A DNA stretch of 58,633 nt, the filler included, from Sphacelaria rigidula (Eukaryota), in the NCBI GenBank assembly GCA_964200075.2. It is 8 parts of 8 records of this genome, joined end to end, with 100 filler letters (N's around TTAATTAATTAA, not from the genome) between each part and the next. Parts side by side here need not be neighbours in the genome. Positions count along the whole stretch, not along the records: positions 22,027 to 29,268 come from CAXNAA020015802.1; 7 more parts are not named here. One strand, written 5' to 3'. Shown here one piece after another: positions 23,300 to 33,709 of this stretch (its first letter is position 1; the number at the start of each line of letters is the position of its first letter). A program made the position numbers and the translations under genes. The notes under the pieces were generated by a model. The model worked only from the letters and a program-made list of their open reading frames with translations, had not been told where the DNA came from and made no database searches.

Positions 23300-26200
23300 C
23301 TTGGGGAGTGGACCTTTCCCTCCGTCGCTTGAATGCCGTTCCCCTCTCTTCTCTCTCTCCCACTCTGCCCACAACAGCTTTGGTTCGCCAGAAAAATCCC
23401 GTCCCCACCCTCCCGTCGCACTGCCGGCGCACTCACTGCCCGGTGCCGCGACCGCAACACTCGTGATTTCCAAGCCAAATCTCGCAAATACAATTCGTCC
23501 TAGAGTCCTCAGAGTTATGCTGGGATCACCAGCTCCTCCTGCCATTTGGCAATCACTGCTCTCACTTCCACTAGTGTGTGTGCTGCTTCTAATAGTGCTG
23601 TTCGGCCCAAGTTTTTCCTTCCATGGCCGGATTTCCTCAATACCCCACTCCGTGAAGCCTTCAGGAACGGCGCGGACGCTGTCCCCCGACAGCGGATCGA
23701 AGTCTCTCGAGACAACGGCCTTCGGAGGGTCCGGCGCTGACCACAACGGGAGAATGCCTCGGCGCGTGTTACCGCGACAACGATCCTCATTTTCACCACG
23801 ACTTGGACCATCCTCCTGTCGAGGGCCACTCAGACTCCAGTTGCAGAGGTCAGTTCGAGATGGCGTCGTCCCCAAGAGTTTGAAGAGCTCTATCATGATT
23901 AGCCCGGCGACGGCAGACCTGGCAATACCAAAGTCTCGGTCATATGAGTGTGTTCGTCCTGAACCATCGATAACTGCGCTTTGCCGTTGTGCGGGGCATA
24001 AGGTCGACGGGGTAGTTTCGGTTTCGGTTGAACATTTGGGGGTGGTGATAGCGATCCGGCGATCGAGTAGCTCCTTGAATCCTCCGTGGCCTCTGCAAAC
24101 GAGGCAACTGGTGCGGCCCGGGGCCATCACCTGAATGCGGCAAATCCCAGCGTAAGTAATACTGCTGTGAATGAACACGACCCTTCAAGGTAGGAAGTAT
24201 ACCTCTCGGAATACGTTTTTCCATGCAAACCGCTTGTATAGGACTTGCGTAGTTGGACTGTGCTGGGACTCGCGAGTGTCGTTAATAGTCGCTACCGCCC
24301 TGCTCCACGCTACAATGCAATGATAAAACACTCCCGTGCCGATCTTCACCTTGGTTTGGACGATTTATCACTGCGATGAAGGCGACGTACGGATCTCAAC
24401 ACACGTACGGTAGGATCTCCATCCGCACACCGCCGAAAACATGTAATCATTGCCGTGTCTCAAAATTAGTCCTGGCTCGAAGCCCACTCACCTCTAGACC
24501 ACCACTACCCGCCTTGCCATCATCCGCCCACCCCCACACAAGCGGTTTTCGGTGCAGCACGCATTTGTGGCAGACAAATCGCAACAGAGATTCGCATTCT
24601 CCCGCAACAGACGATCTTCCCGCCCATCTCGCTGGGGTACCGCAACAGAACGGTCGAGGCAAAACGGAGGTGGCCTGCACGTTAGCATCGGTGGAAATCG
24701 GATTGCTTGTTTGTGAGCGAAGTACGGTGTGGCCTGCCTTGCCCATTAAGGCACCAAGCAGGCTCGAAGTCAAGGTGCGTGTTTGCCTACTTCCCAAGGT
24801 GTATGATGCCGATGTGTCGAATCTCTAGAGGTTGATGGTAAGTTTTCCGCTTATGTGACCGAAGTCATGCTTCAACGCGTTACAAAAACACGCTCTACAT
24901 GTTTTGCGTGGGAGAGGGGATGCAAAACAGTGATACCGTCACTGTGGTTTCGAACGAAGCACATATGTTCCGCCGCCACGGCGTCCTCTCTGGAGGATGC
25001 GATACAAAACGCTAGGAAAGCTGATCGCCGAACATGAGTACTCCTTCCCCTTACAAGCCTGGTCCGACGAGAACGCGGCGTGCCGTCCTGGCTTTGTAGG
25101 GATGCAAGGTCGATGACCTCATGACTACGACATGCAATGTCATGAGTACACTCCCCCCTTCCGTGCCTCCCTTGGCTACATTGCAGAACGACTAACCTTT
25201 TTGGCCAACGCAAACAACAGCGGTGTCGATGCCTTCCCACAAGTCAAAGTCCTCGTTAGTTTCCTGTACGGGACCATCGAACGAGAATGTACGCGGCAGT
25301 AACCCTGGTCCTGCGCCAGACATATGGTGCCGAAGGACTGCCGCACGGCCAGGCATAATCTCTGCTGCAAATGGACACGTGGGGTCAAAAGGTTAGACGA
25401 ATCCATTGCTGCGAGAGCGCCGGAGGTTGTGTCAGCTAGTGAGTGCTACTACGCCTGCTTTGTCTTGCCGTAAGACCCTCGCCGTTAAGAAAACCGATTG
25501 TGGTCTGCATCGAGTCGTAGGTACACGATGCCCATGAACGCTGATGTCACACGAGAACCACCTGCAGCCCCTGCATCTCCGATCGAAAGGTTTTGCTATT
25601 TGTTCGTGAAATCACCGTTCTCCGGGGAGAGAATTACGTTCAGCGAAACCGACGGCGATGAAAAAATATCGAAGTTCGAACAGTGAGTACGGTTCTACCA
25701 GAGAACACTCGACCGGATTCTTTTGACTTCGAGCGATCCAGACGGTAGTCGTTGCGGTGTCGCTTGAAGTTTAATATGCACACCAATTTTTGGACATCCA
25801 TGTTCACCGCTCGAAATACCTGCTCCCCGCTCCACCCCGGCTATATCGCTGTTTCTGCTCCAAGCTCCACAGCCAGTACCTGTCCGCAAAGTATCACCAC
25901 CGTCGATGAATATCACGCGCCCGCTCGGACCGCTGCATACCCCAGAGTTCGCCAGACATCGGGCAACTTCTCGTCCTAGACGATTGCATCCAATAATAGC
26001 AACTCGAGCGTCTTGGATCTTGTGCCCCGTGACGGGACTGAGCCAGGCTTTCAAAGCCCCGGCATCTAGCACAGTTAAGGTCGGAGGAAGGCATGAACGA
26101 CAGCGTTTGGCACACGACTGGGTAAAGCGAAAACGTTTCTTCGCGGTTAGGGATTGTGAGGTAAGGAATATGTTTTTTTGTGTCCATTTTCAACTTCTCT

Positions 26201-28149
26201 GAAAATCATCGTTCAATCGAACATGTTCCGTGCGGAGATCGATACTCGCGCTTTGTGGAGATGAAAATGGCGGACGAGCGGAGATACTTACTTCAATAGA
26301 TTGACCTTCGCACGAGTATGATCATTTACACTACGCACACACCATCATGTGCACATGCCAACTTTCGGAACACTGCTGTCTTCGTCTCTCACGAACATCA
26401 CTCGTTCTCAAAGTAGTGCAATCTTTTTGCTCACCTAGTGCAGTCCCCGTTCTGGTTGCTCCGAAAATCCACCGCCCGTCTGCTGCACTAGTCTCTCCGC
26501 AATTACCGTTACATGCAATGTCTAGCTCATCTATGATGAACCACTGTCCGTCGTTTTGGTTCGGCTCACTCGAGCCAGTTCCTGGGTTGTCTAGTGGCAA
26601 ACACTTGTCACTGCTGGAGCCATCACGGGGGCCCTCAAGCGGCGAACACTCGATGTCACCCTTCGGGTGACAGGTAGACGTGGCCCAGTGGTGAATCTCG
26701 CTCGCTGCTAACCCTCCGAGGAGGAAATCGACCGCCGGTACTGAAATACGTGCGAGCGCGGCCAGCCGGAGACATATCTGCTCGTCCAATAGATCTGTCT
26801 CGGGGGCGAAGCCCTTGGGGACCTACGGTATTGCACGTCAATATCGGCGGGGACAACGTCGTTAAGATTCAAACGATAATATTCAACTGTAATCAAGTGG
26901 ATTTTTTTTTTTTCATGTGTCGCACTTTGAACCCCTCCCCTTCCTCGAGACGAGTCCGTGGTCTCAAGGGATTAATCCATCTCTCGACGGTGCTCCGTCT
27001 CGAAAGGGATGCGTGGTCAATGGTCAAACGACTAAGGCAAGCAACAAATGAGTACGCCCCGGTACACGCCTTGCATTTTGGTCTCGCGGATTGGATCATG
27101 ACCATCAGCACTCTCGCACCGCGTCAACTCACGTCAAAACAAACTCAGTCGACTACTTTGTTTACTCACGTTCTCATGCTTCCAAGGTGGAAATCAGATA
27201 CTACGAAGAAAAAACCAAACGCATCGGGAATCGAACCCTCGTTCTCTCCACCCTAATGGCGACAGTCGGACGATTACACCGCCGGGGCGCGGCGGCGTAT
27301 AAAGGTATGAAAGTCGAGGAGTCGGAAATGGTAAGTGTTGTCCGACTGCTATGTCGAATGTTCTTGCTTGCTTGGCGCTACTCCTGCTGTGTCGGTCAAT
27401 CAAGCTCAGAACTGTTTCACGTGTCTTGTAGCTGGTAGCACACCCGCGCATTAAAAAGTGGGTCCGGGGTGATTTTTTTATGCCAGAGGATCTGTTGACG
27501 TACGTATATTATAAGCAGGTAAGCAGTACGGTAAGACTCCACTTCCAAACACTCCCGCCTCAAATGTTTTGTGTGTCGAGTAGAACATCGAAGGATAAGC
27601 GTGCCAGTCGCGACAGCTGAACGTTGTGCATCTGTACTTGTGCAAGCGCTATCCCTCTACGTGAAGGCTTACACTCGCATTTCTCTCCGTCTCCACCAGC
27701 TCTTTGGCTATTCGGACCACCTCCTGTGCATGATCTCGGTCGAACGCAAGTGGAAGGTGTCCGTGTTCCTGCGTGAACACGTGCAGCGCCTGGAGGCAGA
27801 TGTGCAGCTGTAACCGTCGATCTGACATTCCAACTGGCGCAACAGCTGCAGCGTCCACAGCAGAATCAGATCGTTGCTGCGTCCCCCCTGGCCTCCGCGC
27901 ACGCCTTGATGTACCACTCGAATCCTGGACCCCAGCGTCACAAGCTCTTCTCTCAGCGACTGCTTCCGGCCAATCCGAAAAACTTGTTGGTCGCATGTGC
28001 ACGCAAGTGGTATCGTCTAGGTCGGCGGTGAAGCGGGGGTTCAGGAGTGCCTCTCTCAGGCTCCCTGAGTTTCCACTTAGGTCAAGAAACAGCCGACCGA
28101 CAGGACCTCTTGACTCGGTGAAAATAAATCCGCATCCCACTGCTCGGCA
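23300..28149 (-). CDS. Divergent ubiquitin-activating enzyme E1 (UBA1/UBA6-like), partial, with atypical domain content
   Basis: Exons: 28149-27673 (CRAVGCGFIFTESRGPVGRLFLDL...SLREALLNPRF...LQLHICLQALHVF), 26822-26435 (LDEQICLRLAALARISVPAVDFLLGGLAASEI...QWFIIDELD), 26065-~25715 (KIQDARVAIIGCNRLGREVARCLANSGVCSGPSGRVIFID; 3' boundary uncertain), ~24824-24492 (FVCHKCVLHRKPLV) and 24130-23300 (AVAGLIMIELFKLL...VRAVPEGFTEW...ITLRTL...FGLEITSV). These are colinear with recalled UBA1 motifs RGLFGQLFCD, QLHIGFQALH, IGGLAAQEV, RCVYYRKPLL, AVVGLVCLELYK and the UFD. Confidence 0.8.
26902..27297 (-). mobile_element. tRNA-derived SINE-like element (intronic in the E1-like gene)
   Basis: Reverse complement of 402-722, with the B-box read on the plus strand as GGGAATCGAACCC and poly(T) at the left end. 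It carries an extra ~70-bp insert. Confidence 0.72.
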
Positions 28150-28489
28150 CTGTGATGAAGAAAAACGAAAGAGATGGACGCCCCCGATGGAGGCCACGTT
28201 CGGAGGTCGTACTCGTTATCATGCTGAGTATTAGTAAGGGAAGTTGATTGACGATTCCGCTCTCAACACAGAATTTTACATATTGGAGATTGATGTTTTT
28301 TGAGGATGAATCTTGGGGACCTTCGTGAGTATCGAAATAAGAAACGCAAATGTGCTATTCAGCCGTGATATGTGGCTTTGCTCACCCTCCAAAAACAAAG
28401 TGTCTACAATAAGCTATTATTTGGGGTTCTACAGATTATTGAGGGTGTTTTTTTTTCAGAATGGGCAGTGAGAACCTTCCACCTATCGG

Positions 28490-29000
28490 ACGAGTCATTA
28501 CTCGTCGAAACGAGTGCACTCGTCAATGTTTTTTTTTTAAATACCACGAGCATGACTCGCGTGCTCGAGCCGTTGACATTTTAACCTCGAGCAACGACTC
28601 GAGTATTTGCCCTATTAATTTTTTCCACCACGAGCAATGACTGAAGTACTCGCCACCTTTGTTTTTCCACCGCGAGCGACACTTTCTACGATAGCCCCCC
28701 CCAAAAAAAGTGCATGGTTTGGGGAGGCAAAGTCTTCACGTAAATCGAAATGAGAAAAGCCGAGCACAACAAGCAGCTGGGAATTCCCACGCTTGGGCTC
28801 GTTCTAGCCAATGTCGCCAATATGAGGCGCTTCATGCAGCCTGAACGCAAACATCAGGCGCTGTATGGTCATTTTTTTCGTGGCACTTTTGAGCTGGATT
28901 TTTTTGGGGGGGGGGCTATCGTAGAGAGTGTCGCGCAATGACTCGACTGCTCGCCATATTAATTTTCTTTCACCACGGGCAATGACTCGAGTATTCGCCC
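28490..29000. repeat. Degenerate ~45-bp minisatellite (TTTTCCACCACGAGCAATGACTCGAGTATTCGCC-like) interrupted by a MITE
   Basis: Several imperfect units occur on both sides of 28676-28934. Confidence 0.65.
28676..28934. mobile_element. MITE family C (~260 bp)
   Basis: Terminal inverted repeats GCGACACTTTCTACGATAGCCCCCCCC and GGGGGGGGGCTATCGTAGAGAGTGTCGC. The internal sequence is related to ~8610-8830 and ~50975-51215 in opposite orientation. Confidence 0.72.
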
Positions 29001-30677
29001 TAATAGGACCGATTCTCAAAAATGGGGTCGAAGACCAAAATGAGATTCAAATGGCGTAACTGTTTTTCAAGAAAGGTGCGAAACAATTACACCAAGAGAG
29101 GGCATCTTCCCCCGAAAATAATACGAGTATGCAGCAGTTACGTATGCAGGACGTAGCTCCAGCTCTATCTAACTGCATATATTTCTTTGTATTGAGCAGG
29201 TGTGGCTAGGTGCACCGAACGAATGCGGTGTACACGCGTGTCGATGACGATATCACCAGAGAGAGGCGNNNNNNNNNNNNNNNNNNNNNNNNNNNNNNNN
29301 NNNNNNNNNNNNTTAATTAATTAANNNNNNNNNNNNNNNNNNNNNNNNNNNNNNNNNNNNNNNNNNNNTACCGCGCGCTCGTCTATTGCACATAGATGTG
29401 TGTGAGCGTTGCCGGCATCCGAGATCATCGGGACAGGGCGGGCAAGGAGCAGAAGCAAATATACGAACCTCGCAAAGCCTGCCAGACATTTTGGTTTCTG
29501 CAGTGTTTGTTGATCAATTTATTTCAAAACTAGTTAAAAAATAATCATGACATTTTGGTTTTTTCATGCCCTCCGGGAGGAGAGGGGGAAAGGGGGGGGG
29601 GTCCTTGTCCGAAACCTTTCTCTGGACAGACCCTTGGATGAAGCATACAGTACTGCCAGTAAAATCGAATAGATGATGCCAATACTTGAGGCTTTTTGTG
29701 CGGCAAATACTTTCTTTTTTCCTGCCGAAGATTAACTGAGTACTCGCAATGGTATCCGGCGAAAGAGCTACGGACCAAGGGAAAATGGTGCTTGTATCCA
29801 TCATTTGCGAACAAACACAGCTGCACCTGCTAGGTTCAGCTTCTACTCGCAATAAACCATGCGGCATCGAGTTGCATATCTCCCTCCAAAACGAGCTGCT
29901 TACGTGGAGTGCAACCAGATCACTCTCCCCAACACCGAACCCGTGACATTCTGACAACACCAGTACTAACTCGATGGATCAGGTGTTCAACATCCCGCGG
30001 ACGATGATACGGAGGGGATCGGGAACATCGGAGGTGGCCGGGTCTCCACCGTCGGTAAACATTGGGGCGAAGACGACAGTAGCAGTACAGCCGAGGACAC
30101 AACGGTGGGAAGAAGTGACGCAGACAGCAGTAGTAATAAAAAGGTGGTACAACGTGGTTCCGGGGACAGTTCAGCAACAAACGAGAAAAGTAGGGTTTCC
30201 GATTCTCGCGAAAATAGTAGCAGCAGGACTAGCGGGGTTGGTTCGGCAGGCTCTGGCAGTAGCAGTGTCGAAAGGACTGGGGAGAGAGAGACTCTTAGTA
30301 CGGATGGCTGGGGTGACGGTCGGGAAATACAGCCACGGTGACAATCCGGCCACGGTGACATTTTATTGCAGGGTGCAGTCGGAGTAACGGTATCGGTGAC
30401 GACAGTTTGTGTTCGGAAGAGGTTGAGAGAAGATACTCGTCAGCAGGGGCGGCATGACGAGCCTGCGACAACTGGTCTTGGCTTTTGATTCTGTGGTGAC
30501 TACAATGCTTTTGATGGATCTTTCGATGGACAGGCGGGTTGGCGGGAGGAGCAAATTACACTCACTGTCTTTGTTTCTGACTTTGCTGCTGTACCGTCGT
30601 GCGCGTTTGTTTATGTACCGTGGTATTTCCAGTGGAGTCGGTTTCTTGTTAAGGTTTTTCCGTGTGTACATGTCGTC

Positions 30678-30998: not shown

Positions 30999-33709
30999 TC
31001 ACAACTGAATACGAAACTCACTCGTAATGCGAGCAGCAACGGCACGAGTCACGCGCAATTTACGCAACTCCTTTGTAAAAAATTCCGTAGCGGCCTCAAA
31101 CATATCCTTGAAAGGCTGCCACGTACGTTCCTTCACTTCGAAACCAACCCAGTCGACCAACACGGTCAACTTACGGTCGTCTGCCTCTGCTACTCGGACA
31201 ATACCAGCCACCTGAAATTGCCCCTGATTCAAAGCATAATGGAACACGTCCTTAGCGTCAACCGCAACATTAAGCTACGAGTCTGCAAAATAATGCAAAC
31301 GAGCTACATGGGCGGTCTGAACACGACCCGAAACAATGTTTTGAATCTCAAACACATGCGGGTGATGAGCCCCAACCACTCTCCATGGACCAGTCCACGT
31401 ACACAGCCAATCATCTCGTGGTACGGCGTACTATCGTAACCACGACGATACGCTGTATTGAGCGCCCATTTCACCGCAGGCAACACGTTCACCCACTCGA
31501 AGACCGCTCTACGTTGCTCGAAAAGAATAGAGCGAAGAGCACGAACTACTTCCTTGACCATGCGTTCGCACGTGCCGTTAAACCACGGAAAATACGCCAC
31601 CGCAAACTGGTGATAAACGTGCAAAACCTCTTGCAATCGAGCCAAGATCGCATTCTTCAAATGCGTGGCGGTATCACACACCCACACACGCGGCACCCCC
31701 AAAGTTTTGCACCAATCGAGCAAAAATGCAGCAGTCGATTCAGCAGTACACCCTGCTAATGGCTGCCGAGAAACGAAGTTGCTCAAATCATCCATGATTA
31801 CCAAAATGTTTCGAAACCCAGCATCCTCCGACATACCTTGGGAAGCTAGCGGGCCACCTCGCCCACGTACAAGAAGTCAAAATGAACGACTTCATTTGGC
31901 ACGGTCTCATGGGCCCTTTTACCGAGCGGGCGGGGAACAACAGCGCCCGCCCTCGAGTTAGCACAGTGAAGACAATTGTGGACGAATTCGCGCACATGAG
32001 TTTCTATCCCCTGCCAAACACCAAACACTTGCAAACGCACGAGCGTCGCAGTCACATCACGATGCCCGGCGTCGCGCATGCGCGCGAAAATCATTAGACG
32101 TACCTGCAACTGCTTGTCATAACTCGGAATCCTCGAAACGTTTCGGCCACGCACATGCACCCGAAACAGATTATCATTGTCCAAGATAGCAGTACCAACG
32201 TTCGACTCGAAAGATTGCACATCTGCATCCTCGGCCCCAAGGTCTTTTCGTTGCGCTTGGCGGACAACCGATTTGGACGGCATCGAGTCACCAGGTTCAC
32301 ACAGACTATACACAGCCACCGTGCGCACAGGCAAAGCCGGAATATTCACCCAACGCGAAAGCAAGTCACCCCACGCGTTATGTTCACCCGAAATATGGCA
32401 AATCGAGTAAGGATTCTGGCCAAGAACAGCTTTCCAATCCTCCAAACGTTGCCAATGCCTTCGACACAGACGTAACGCATACTTCCGCATTGAAAATATA
32501 CACGAGATTTCGGTGATCCGTGAACATGTGCACGCCATCCCACGAGAGATGCTCCAAACGGCGATAAGTGCTCACGATGGCAGAACCTTCCTTGCCAATT
32601 GTGACCCAACGCAACTGCGAACCCTTGAAAGTACCACTGAGGGAAGCCAGCGGTTCGTGCGTCATATCCACAACCGGCTGGCGTCTTTGCATTTCAGCTG
32701 TAGGCACCTGCGTGGCGAACCTACCCCAATGGCACTCAGATGCATCCGGAAACATTAATATCTGACAATCAGGACGAGGATGGAGCAGCGTCACGGCATA
32801 ACCCACCAGATCCTTCGCGGCCGCCGACGCCTGCAGCCTGCCCTCCGTCCACGATGCAGCCTTCTTCAAAAACGCCATATCTGGACTGGACCACCCCCCC
32901 TGCAAATTCCGTTATACCAACCCGAGCGCCAAAAAAGCCGCCATACACGACGACAACTAACTCGACTTCACTGGATCGTACCGCCGCGGCTTCGTCTTCG
33001 CCGCGGACGCCCCAGGTTTTAGCTGAACTCGCATGGGCTCCACGCGCGCAGGGGGATCACCCCACAGCGCACGACGAAATGCGTTGACGCGGCGCGCGCA
33101 GGCGCTCCGTTTTCGAGGCGTCGAGGTCTTTCGCCATATATCCGTCACGTTCTCCTCAAGCGCGACCTCCCGAGCGAACCCTTCTTCCGCCGGAACCACA
33201 AATATCTCCGGGCCGCGCTCTACCAAGCGTTCCCCCGCCGCCTCCCGCTCCTCGGTCACCTGCTCCCCAGCCTTCTGAGAGGCATCCACCGATAAGTTCA
33301 CGCAACGACAACCCCAAAAAGCGGGCGTGCCCAAGCGTGGACCAAGCGGAGACATCCGCGGCTTCATGGAGCCCCGCAACCGCCGAGCGTCGACTCCAAG
33401 ATCCTGAAACGTCGGCAACCCTGGGAAAATGACGCCATCCGACCCCGGCATGATCGCAAACGAGATCGGAGGCAACGGCGCCGGCTCCCAGGAAGTCGTG
33501 GAAGTCAGCTGCAGCGGAACAGTACGCTCTGTGACGTAAACATGCTGACCGACGCGGTGACGGCCTGCCGCGCCCCGAGCGAAAACGGCTTGCGCAGCGG
33601 CACACCCGGGAGAAGACGCTTCAGCATCTCTACAATCTGTACCGACAGACTCACATGACCCGTCAAGTGGGCGCCATAACCCACTTAGCCCGAACCGCAA
33701 TGGCTCCAC
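30999..33709 (-). pseudogene. Gypsy pol remnant (protease region, truncated RT, RNase H, integrase, chromodomain)
   Basis: Fragmented ORFs 32957-33709, 32384-32905, 31846-32538, 31304-31834 and 30999-31247 carry successive pol motifs in Gypsy order. Confidence 0.88.

Follow-up and report, generated by a model that had tools for sequence, protein, structure and literature searches.

Can the chain of a ubiquitin-activating enzyme (E1) lose both of its catalytic-cysteine half-domains, FCCH and SCCH, and still be maintained by the lineage that carries it? The question is raised by a gene in a stretch of Sphacelaria rigidula DNA of 58.6 kb (58,633 nucleotides; assembly GCA_964200075.2), hereafter ‘the window’, which consists of parts joined end to end such that adjoining parts are not necessarily genomic neighbours. 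The E1-like gene contains introns, lies on the minus strand and shows, over six in-phase exons between 28149 and 23300, an open frame with a scaffold of UBA1 type; all of its exons, labelled a to g, fall within positions 22,027–29,268 of the window, corresponding to CAXNAA020015802.1. An initial annotation, made from the DNA alone, had proposed a reduced E1 paralogue without either half-domain. Our analysis leads us to a similar answer: the gene probably encodes a maintained, non-catalytic ‘pseudo-E1’, a member of a UBA1-derived family found in brown algae and in Chrysoparadoxa.

Both cysteine half-domains are missing at junctions internal to exons

The gene was mapped by tblastn with an Ectocarpus orthologue (P0001) and by inspection of GT/AG sites, coordinates below the level of the exon being derived by residue count. 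The seven exons inferred in this way (477, 388, 186, 168, 140, 831 and 135 nt) are each flanked by GT/AG sites and join, with all phases fitting, into 775 codons with one stop, which is terminal; the long open frames of 277 and 159 codons with intact splice phases described in the initial annotation are thereby confirmed.

Translation likewise bears out the two junctions, both of which lie inside single uninterrupted exons and persist in the joined frame, and which we therefore take to be real. At the first, inside exon a (28149–27673, 159 codons), the two motifs stand three residues apart, as claimed; in yeast Uba1 the matching points are separated by ~115 residues, with FCCH in between (query 22–49 aligning to 3cmm 134–161, and query 130–173 to 276–320). 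At the second, within exon f (24130–23300, 277 codons), 68 residues lead from the pre-crossover strand to the last helix of the adenylation domain, where the canonical UBA1 P0068 has ~300.

Domain searches agree with this picture. Amongst four reading frames of the window, that of exon a matches Pfam E1_4HB (E 6.2e-13; 49 bits, cut-off 25) and that of exon c gives a sub-threshold match to ThiF (E 3e-4), with no match to E1_FCCH, UBA_E1_SCCH or E1_UFD in any of the four, even at E ≤ 1. The long family members P0001, P0002 and P0007 repeat the pattern, with E1_4HB and ThiF in 3/3 and FCCH, SCCH and UFD in 0/3; eight ordinary E1s, used as controls with the same Pfam models, return SCCH in 8/8, FCCH in 6/8 and UFD in 6/8. 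The proposed lack of both half-domains is thus supported by models that are silent in the window and in full-length orthologues, but positive in control E1s. A phmmer search of PDB sequences with exons b, c and f returned no E1 at a significant level.

Contigs from four runs of the same organism (X1–X4) are available across the locus; these are presumed to be RNA, a guess only, and have a depth of 2–5, such that parts left uncovered are not evidence of any kind. They match at 100% identity, and their ends or starts fall precisely on 23300 and 22373 (two runs each) and on 25197 and 26065: this looks like the pattern expected of spliced RNA, the run type being presumed. As contigs of X1 and X2 stop at 23300 whilst others start at 22373, at least one further exon should follow exon f. 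The extent given initially, 28149–23300, is therefore right in containing six exons, but not in its end-point. The contigs of X1 and X2 that start at 22373 carry 21–30 unaligned letters beyond this position, and the joint 23300→22373 is not among the 15 joints listed.

The family retains the UBA1 scaffold on either side of the deletions

Profile–profile comparison (hhalign) of a 67-row family alignment with seven canonical UBA1s yields two blocks of homology. The first, which extends from the N-terminal half as far as the beginning of the crossover loop, equates residues 13–621 of P0002 with residues 35–575 of UBA1 (P0068; 99.9%, E 4.8e-32); the second equates residues 686–964 with 877–1030, taking in the last adenylation helix through to the UFD (94.8%, or 98.1% with another alignment). 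Between the two blocks, 64 residues of the family stand against the ~300 residues that form the crossover loop, SCCH and re-entry loop of UBA1.

Two ThiF-type adenylation domains on one chain are thus found for the family, by hhalign and by Pfam ThiF; the window itself yielded the second domain but, of the first, no more than its second half. The four-helix bundle of the inactive domain is recognised by Pfam E1_4HB in exon a of the window, in P0001 and in P0002, and neither FCCH nor an SCCH with its catalytic cysteine is present. A C-terminal UFD is indicated for the family by hhalign and by a predicted structure of the Choristocarpus protein P0007 that reaches the chain ends of Uba1 and UBA6. 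For the window, the UFD-like C-terminus proposed initially holds in part: hhalign places the first two thirds of the UFD in exon f, but Pfam E1_UFD gives no match and a search of the window did not recover the conserved last exon.

The P0007 structure, modelled with AlphaFold (pLDDT 72.8, pTM 0.76), has UBA1, UBA6 and UBA7 as its top Foldseek matches (E 7.5e-21). Its residues 1–617 align end to end with residues 329–1048 of UBA6 and 295–1012 of Uba1 (Z 23–24; rmsd 3.3–4.5 Å over 407–440 residues), a span that runs from the bundle to the end of the chain and leaves ~300 residues of the target unmatched. In the ESM Atlas model of P0071, one of two Chrysoparadoxa sequences, residues 1–363 align with UBA1-type clusters (TM 0.66 by query), and an ESM Atlas search with this protein places ThiF-type clusters among its near neighbours.

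The linker at the FCCH site varies in both length and sequence among orthologues, with only ~35 residues in the other Chrysoparadoxa sequence, P0058. In the model of P0002 it corresponds to residues 176–223, which contain no strands, have a pLDDT <50 and are predicted to be disordered.

Nucleotide-binding residues are lost across the family

Passages of PMC6681703 describe, in S. pombe numbering, the contacts made in an active E1: Asp463, Met464 and Leu536 touch the nucleoside; Arg22, Asn471, Arg474 and Lys487 bind the phosphates; Asp537 binds magnesium; and Cys593 is the catalytic cysteine, with Asp465 and Asp537 there called invariant among E1s. Of the residues with which the active adenylation domain binds ATP and magnesium, family alignments that include two canonical UBA1s show only the equivalent of Asp463 to be kept. 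The ‘DxD’ motif accordingly retains its first Asp and has lost its second (Asp465). The helix bearing Asn471 and Arg474 is found in 0/6 family rows versus 2/2 canonical rows, the segment missing outright in the window, and none of 14 family rows has an Asp at the position of Asp537 (a count that leaves out the read-through rows P0047, P0050, P0053 and P0055). The Gly loop reads GxGxxG in 10 of 15 rows, GxNxxG in four (including the window and its own fragment, P0055) and GxDxxG in the last, rows P0029, P0048 and P0052 being left out here; around the position of Lys487 the alignment of the loop is uncertain.

Conservation in the family starts at about residue 11 of P0002, equivalent by alignment to residue 35 of UBA1, leaving no room for the N-terminal helix that carries Arg22 (the ‘Arg finger’). 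The loop that replaces SCCH contains no conserved cysteine column, with 3/11 rows lacking Cys altogether. As far as sequence can indicate, this family-wide loss of ATP- and magnesium-binding residues from the second adenylation domain lends support to the non-catalytic role suggested in the initial annotation.

The reduced architecture is shared and conserved

A search with the 277-codon exon f returned four proteins from Ectocarpus, the longest of 970 residues, 36–37% identical over 93–97% of the exon, in which Pfam detects only E1_4HB and ThiF. HMMER with P0001 against 1.84 billion representative proteins gave 79 matches at E ≤ 1e-3, mostly exon-sized fragments, with canonical UBA1s reaching E 2.2e-8 at best. 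Members with a taxon name, which was attached to 7 of the 30 proteins checked, come from Ectocarpus (four species), Hapterophycus, Choristocarpus and Discosporangium (all Phaeophyceae) and show the same reduction; in Chrysoparadoxa, which belongs to the PX clade outside Phaeophyceae, the annotation divides the gene between two models, P0058 and P0071. That orthologues might be lacking, as allowed for initially, is thus contradicted by the same reduced architecture in at least four brown-algal genera and Chrysoparadoxa. In public databases the proteins are labelled only ‘unnamed protein product’, and a further profile search added no newly named taxa except a EukProt fusion model, P0098. The fragment P0055 is letter-identical to exon c of the window plus read-through, from which it follows that the species of the window is present in this collection only as fragments.

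Taking columns that are ≥85% identical, with at least six non-redundant members, as conserved gives 148 for the family; the window model covers 89 of these and matches 81, its misses falling mostly in a Gly-rich patch or being conservative changes. In a tree of exon f, two rows from Discosporangium/Choristocarpus stand apart from the rest (97/96) and the window pairs with P0017 (94/92), the two end branches measuring 1.13 and 0.97, respectively. Between two Ectocarpus species, identity is 90.7% (369/407) in confidently modelled segments versus 79.4% (442/557) in those of low confidence; judged on sequence, such a difference is what purifying selection acting on the folded parts would give. The frame is open over six to seven spliced exons and has orthologues in several genera, features unlike those of a decaying or processed UBA1 pseudogene. 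Orthologues, conserved columns and RNA-like contigs at four exon borders together support the earlier description of a maintained, structurally reduced E1 paralogue.

Two sets of sequences were seen at the margins of the family. P0064 (650 amino acids, from ENA) and its relative P0088 are E1-like and combine two ThiF regions with a four-helix bundle and a UFD that Pfam does recognise, but they lack SCCH and their crossover loop is shorter still; apart from one close relative, searching with P0064 brought up ordinary UBA1s only, and the pair may represent either an independent loss or a wider family. A partial hypothetical protein of 465 amino acids from the oomycete Pythium insidiosum (P0076) matches the N-terminal half of the family weakly (E 2.5e-5), has an insert of ~100 residues at the FCCH site, and may be a less reduced relative.

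A probable non-catalytic pseudo-E1

The comparisons show a UBA1-derived family in which the pseudo-symmetric platform of two Rossmann folds is kept, as are the four-helix bundle and, at the C-terminus, the ubiquitin-fold domain. FCCH has given way to a linker predicted to be disordered, and SCCH, together with the catalytic cysteine, to a loop of ~50–65 residues; in the second adenylation domain, the residues that bind phosphate and magnesium are also lost. Given these losses, the protein most likely supports neither adenylation of a ubiquitin-like protein (Ubl) nor formation of a thioester and, in the reading that we favour, works as a non-catalytic pseudo-E1. The conserved UFD, which in real E1s serves for docking of the E2, and the CxxC..HGG start of the crossover, near the path of the Ubl tail, may bind a partner, either an E2 or a Ubl, with the protein acting as an adaptor, decoy or regulator.

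A bolder proposal, which we put forward tentatively and hold with less assurance than the reading it extends, is that this is the first pseudo-E1: a single-chain scaffold that would have lost its cysteine half-domains and its adenylation chemistry before the brown algae diversified, and been kept as a module that binds an E2 or a Ubl through its UFD and crossover-loop region and thereby tunes ubiquitin-type conjugation in this lineage. Amongst open-access full texts we found no description of a pseudo-E1 or of this family, nor any account of an entire E1 chain that has lost both catalytic steps while its scaffold is still conserved; pseudoenzymes have been described among E2s and deubiquitinases, as have non-catalytic halves of heterodimeric E1s. 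If correct, our reading would identify the parts of an E1 that have a use besides catalysis (platform, four-helix bundle and UFD), provide structural work with a minimal E1 scaffold of natural origin, and give the ubiquitin system of the brown algae, in which complex multicellularity evolved independently, a regulator specific to their lineage.

Alternative explanations

Several observations weigh against a non-catalytic pseudo-E1. Homology of the family UFD rests on hhalign and the P0007 model, as Pfam E1_UFD gives no match. That model had canonical UBA1s in its input alignment, which may bias it towards an E1 fold; the AlphaFold model of full-length P0002 is poor (pLDDT 51.2; Foldseek TM to Uba1 of 0.13) and was for this reason not used for claims about the fold. 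Alignments within the low-complexity loops are uncertain. To these are added two features of the locus and two of the nucleotide site and crossover, each of which bears on an alternative.

The features of the locus concern its ends. Neither the first exon of the family (~130 residues, the N-terminal Rossmann half) nor the last (~60 residues, the end of the UFD) has an HMM match on either strand of the window, and the last has none in 22030–23299; these are the two best-conserved exons of the family. It is possible, consequently, that the copy here has been truncated or remodelled, or that the assembly is faulty. The alternative that survives best, which we nonetheless consider rather unlikely, builds on this: the family would be real but the copy in the window truncated or decaying between repeats, with a functional copy elsewhere, or with both ends remodelled in this lineage; at the level of the family it is compatible with a pseudo-E1. 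In other species the first exon sits on the same contigs of 8–14 kb as the inner exons, whereas here an X1 contig continues unspliced across the acceptor at 28149 up to 28400, past an in-frame stop at 28216–28218, and repeats lie upstream (28.3–29.3 kb), with a retroelement at 31.3–32.9 kb and high-depth repeats just downstream. A decaying copy is, however, hard to square with six inner exons whose splice sites and phases are intact, with 81/89 conserved columns kept, with a branch that is not lengthened relative to its sister, with conservation of exon a, acceptor included, in the nearest relative (P0033), and with spliced-looking contigs (presumed RNA) of 100% identity.

The retroelement just mentioned comprises integrase zinc-binding and reverse transcriptase RNase H frames on the minus strand at 31307–32911, a position outside 22,027–29,268, and is Ty3/gypsy-like; it lies upstream of the E1-like gene in the window and may have displaced its first exon.

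The two remaining observations are those on which a still-active minimal E1 would depend, in which a cysteine of the CxxC motif at the crossover loop would work with an unusual nucleotide site and a lineage-specific Ubl; we consider this improbable. CxxC is invariant at the start of the crossover in brown algae (11/11 rows, with HGG next in 10/11) and could supply a catalytic cysteine in the manner of UBA5 and ATG7, passages of PMC12355090 placing the catalytic Cys of non-canonical E1s on this loop; DxD also retains its first Asp, as most rows retain the Gly loop, and nucleotide could still bind. Yet Asp537 and Asp465, both of the residues given as invariant above, have no counterpart, nor do Asn471 and Arg474, and the Arg-finger helix has no space; CxxC itself is missing in Chrysoparadoxa P0071 and in P0064; and the same passages describe the crossover-loop cysteines of SUMO E1 as zinc ligands. 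Of the features of a non-canonical minimal E1 (a single active domain, an intact ATP site and a loop cysteine), the family conserves only the CxxC.

That the deletions are artefacts of the gene model, through missed exons or an assembly error, carries only the general risk of any model built from raw sequence and can be set aside almost entirely, since both junctions are inside uninterrupted exons, recur in independently assembled orthologues of several species and, at the SCCH site of exon f (23483–24131), are spanned unbroken by contigs of X1–X3.

Coordinates and other features of the window

Features of the E1-like gene are collected in Table 1. Runs of N in the window (44+44 bases, every 7342 bases) are masks or filler, not gaps.

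Table 1. Exons and sub-exon features of the E1-like gene, in positions of the window
Feature	Position	Strand	Content	Basis
Exon a	27673..28149	-	159 codons; end of N-terminal (inactive-type) adenylation half, FCCH-deletion junction, variable linker, start of four-helix bundle	tblastn to P0001 residues 130–306; AG acceptor, GTAAG donor; Pfam E1_4HB (E 6.2e-13)
FCCH-deletion junction	28030..28098	-	Exon a residues 18–40	Translation; alignment to yeast Uba1
Variable low-complexity linker	27829..28029	-	Exon a residues 41–107; position where UBA1 passes from FCCH to bundle	
Four-helix-bundle segment	27673..27828	-	Exon a residues 108–159	Pfam E1_4HB; phmmer matches to Uba1/UBA7 chains
Exon b	26435..26822	-	Remaining bundle, second part of inactive-type domain, linker to second domain	tblastn to P0001 residues 307–406; splice sites; X1 contig over 26502–26724
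Exon c	25880..26065	-	First beta-alpha-beta unit of second adenylation domain	tblastn; weak ThiF match (E 3e-4); X4 contig starting at 26065
Gly loop (exon c)	~25968–25991	-	Reads GxNxxG	
DxD position (exon c)	~25893–25904	-	Second Asp lost	
Exon d	25197..25364	-		tblastn; alignments; X4 contig ending at 25197
End of exon d	~25201–25218	-	Counterpart of A-L-D-N in active E1s; no Asp here	
Exon e	24492..24631	-	Conserved helix and strand up to crossover point	tblastn to P0002 residues 571–614 (64% identity); splice sites
Exon f	23300..24130	-	277 codons	Alignment with 10 orthologues; hhalign to UBA1 UFD; 100%-identity contigs ending at 23300
Crossover start, CxxC..HGG (exon f)	24080–24130	-		
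Loop remnant at SCCH site (exon f)	23927–24079	-	51 residues	
Last adenylation-domain helix (exon f)	23873–23926	-		
First two thirds of UFD (exon f)	23300–23734	-		
Probable last exon g	22239..22373	-	44 codons plus stop	AG acceptor; in phase with exon f; X1/X2 contigs starting at 22373

A likeness of exon g to the last exon of the family was considered and rejected: visual inspection had suggested it in two frames that overlap on the same DNA, and it was judged to be chance, the C-terminal HMM giving no match; exon g has no recognisable homology to that exon. Just past the Gly-loop codons of exon c, one X4 contig lacks a base at 25967 (depth 4); the contig is probably wrong, as the genomic reading is in frame and agrees with orthologues. 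The intron between exons a and b contains an element of ~70 nt (26987–27060) whose contig depth sums to 1.5–1.9e5 in every one of the four runs, with numerous joints and with loose ends of poly-C; it is probably either a short repeat of very high abundance or a transcribed element. Rfam and tRNA scans found no Rfam family and no tRNA in 22027–29268, this element included.

Elsewhere in the window, an exon-sized frame on the minus strand at 7844–8317 matches the C-terminal ARM domain of TTC21 (IFT139-like; E 5.9e-14) and belongs to a separate gene. Between 14000 and 21800, the G+C content is higher (0.53–0.55), GC skew is positive, and both strands carry many long overlapping frames with no Pfam match.

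Comparison with known systems

The closest systems are UBA1, UBA6 and UBA7, which are the best matches of the family by sequence, profile and fold, and which share its order of parts: an inactive-type adenylation half, a four-helix bundle, a second adenylation domain and a UFD. Unlike these enzymes, the family is without FCCH, SCCH, the catalytic cysteine, the Arg-finger helix and equivalents of Asn471, Arg474, Asp465 and Asp537, and its sequence similarity to UBA1 is very low (E 2.2e-8 or weaker).

SUMO E1 offers a partial parallel in that its FCCH is shrunk to a loop, according to passages of PMC12355090, and its SAE2 chains match the second half of the P0007 model (Z 21–22). SUMO E1 is, however, a heterodimer (SAE1/SAE2) that keeps SCCH, the catalytic cysteine and the ATP site; no second cysteine pair is conserved in the family, and the match to Pfam E1_4HB indicates the UBA1 group. 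SAE1 and NAE1, for their part, are described in the same passages as adenylation-fold halves that have no catalysis of their own and act as a structural platform, much as we propose here; these pair with an active subunit, whereas the family carries both halves on one chain, both of them inactive-looking.

UBA5, ATG7, UBA4/MOCS3 and MoeB/ThiF, again according to these passages, resemble the family in having no separate cysteine domain and only a short crossover loop. In those enzymes a single active domain forms a homodimer, the ATP site is intact and the loop carries a conserved cysteine; the family is a two-domain pseudo-dimer to which a four-helix bundle and a UFD are added. A conceptual parallel to a pseudo-E1 is offered by the UEV pseudo-E2s (such as Mms2/Uev1a), which have a fold of the ubiquitin cascade without its catalytic cysteine and act by binding, albeit with another fold and at another step of the cascade.

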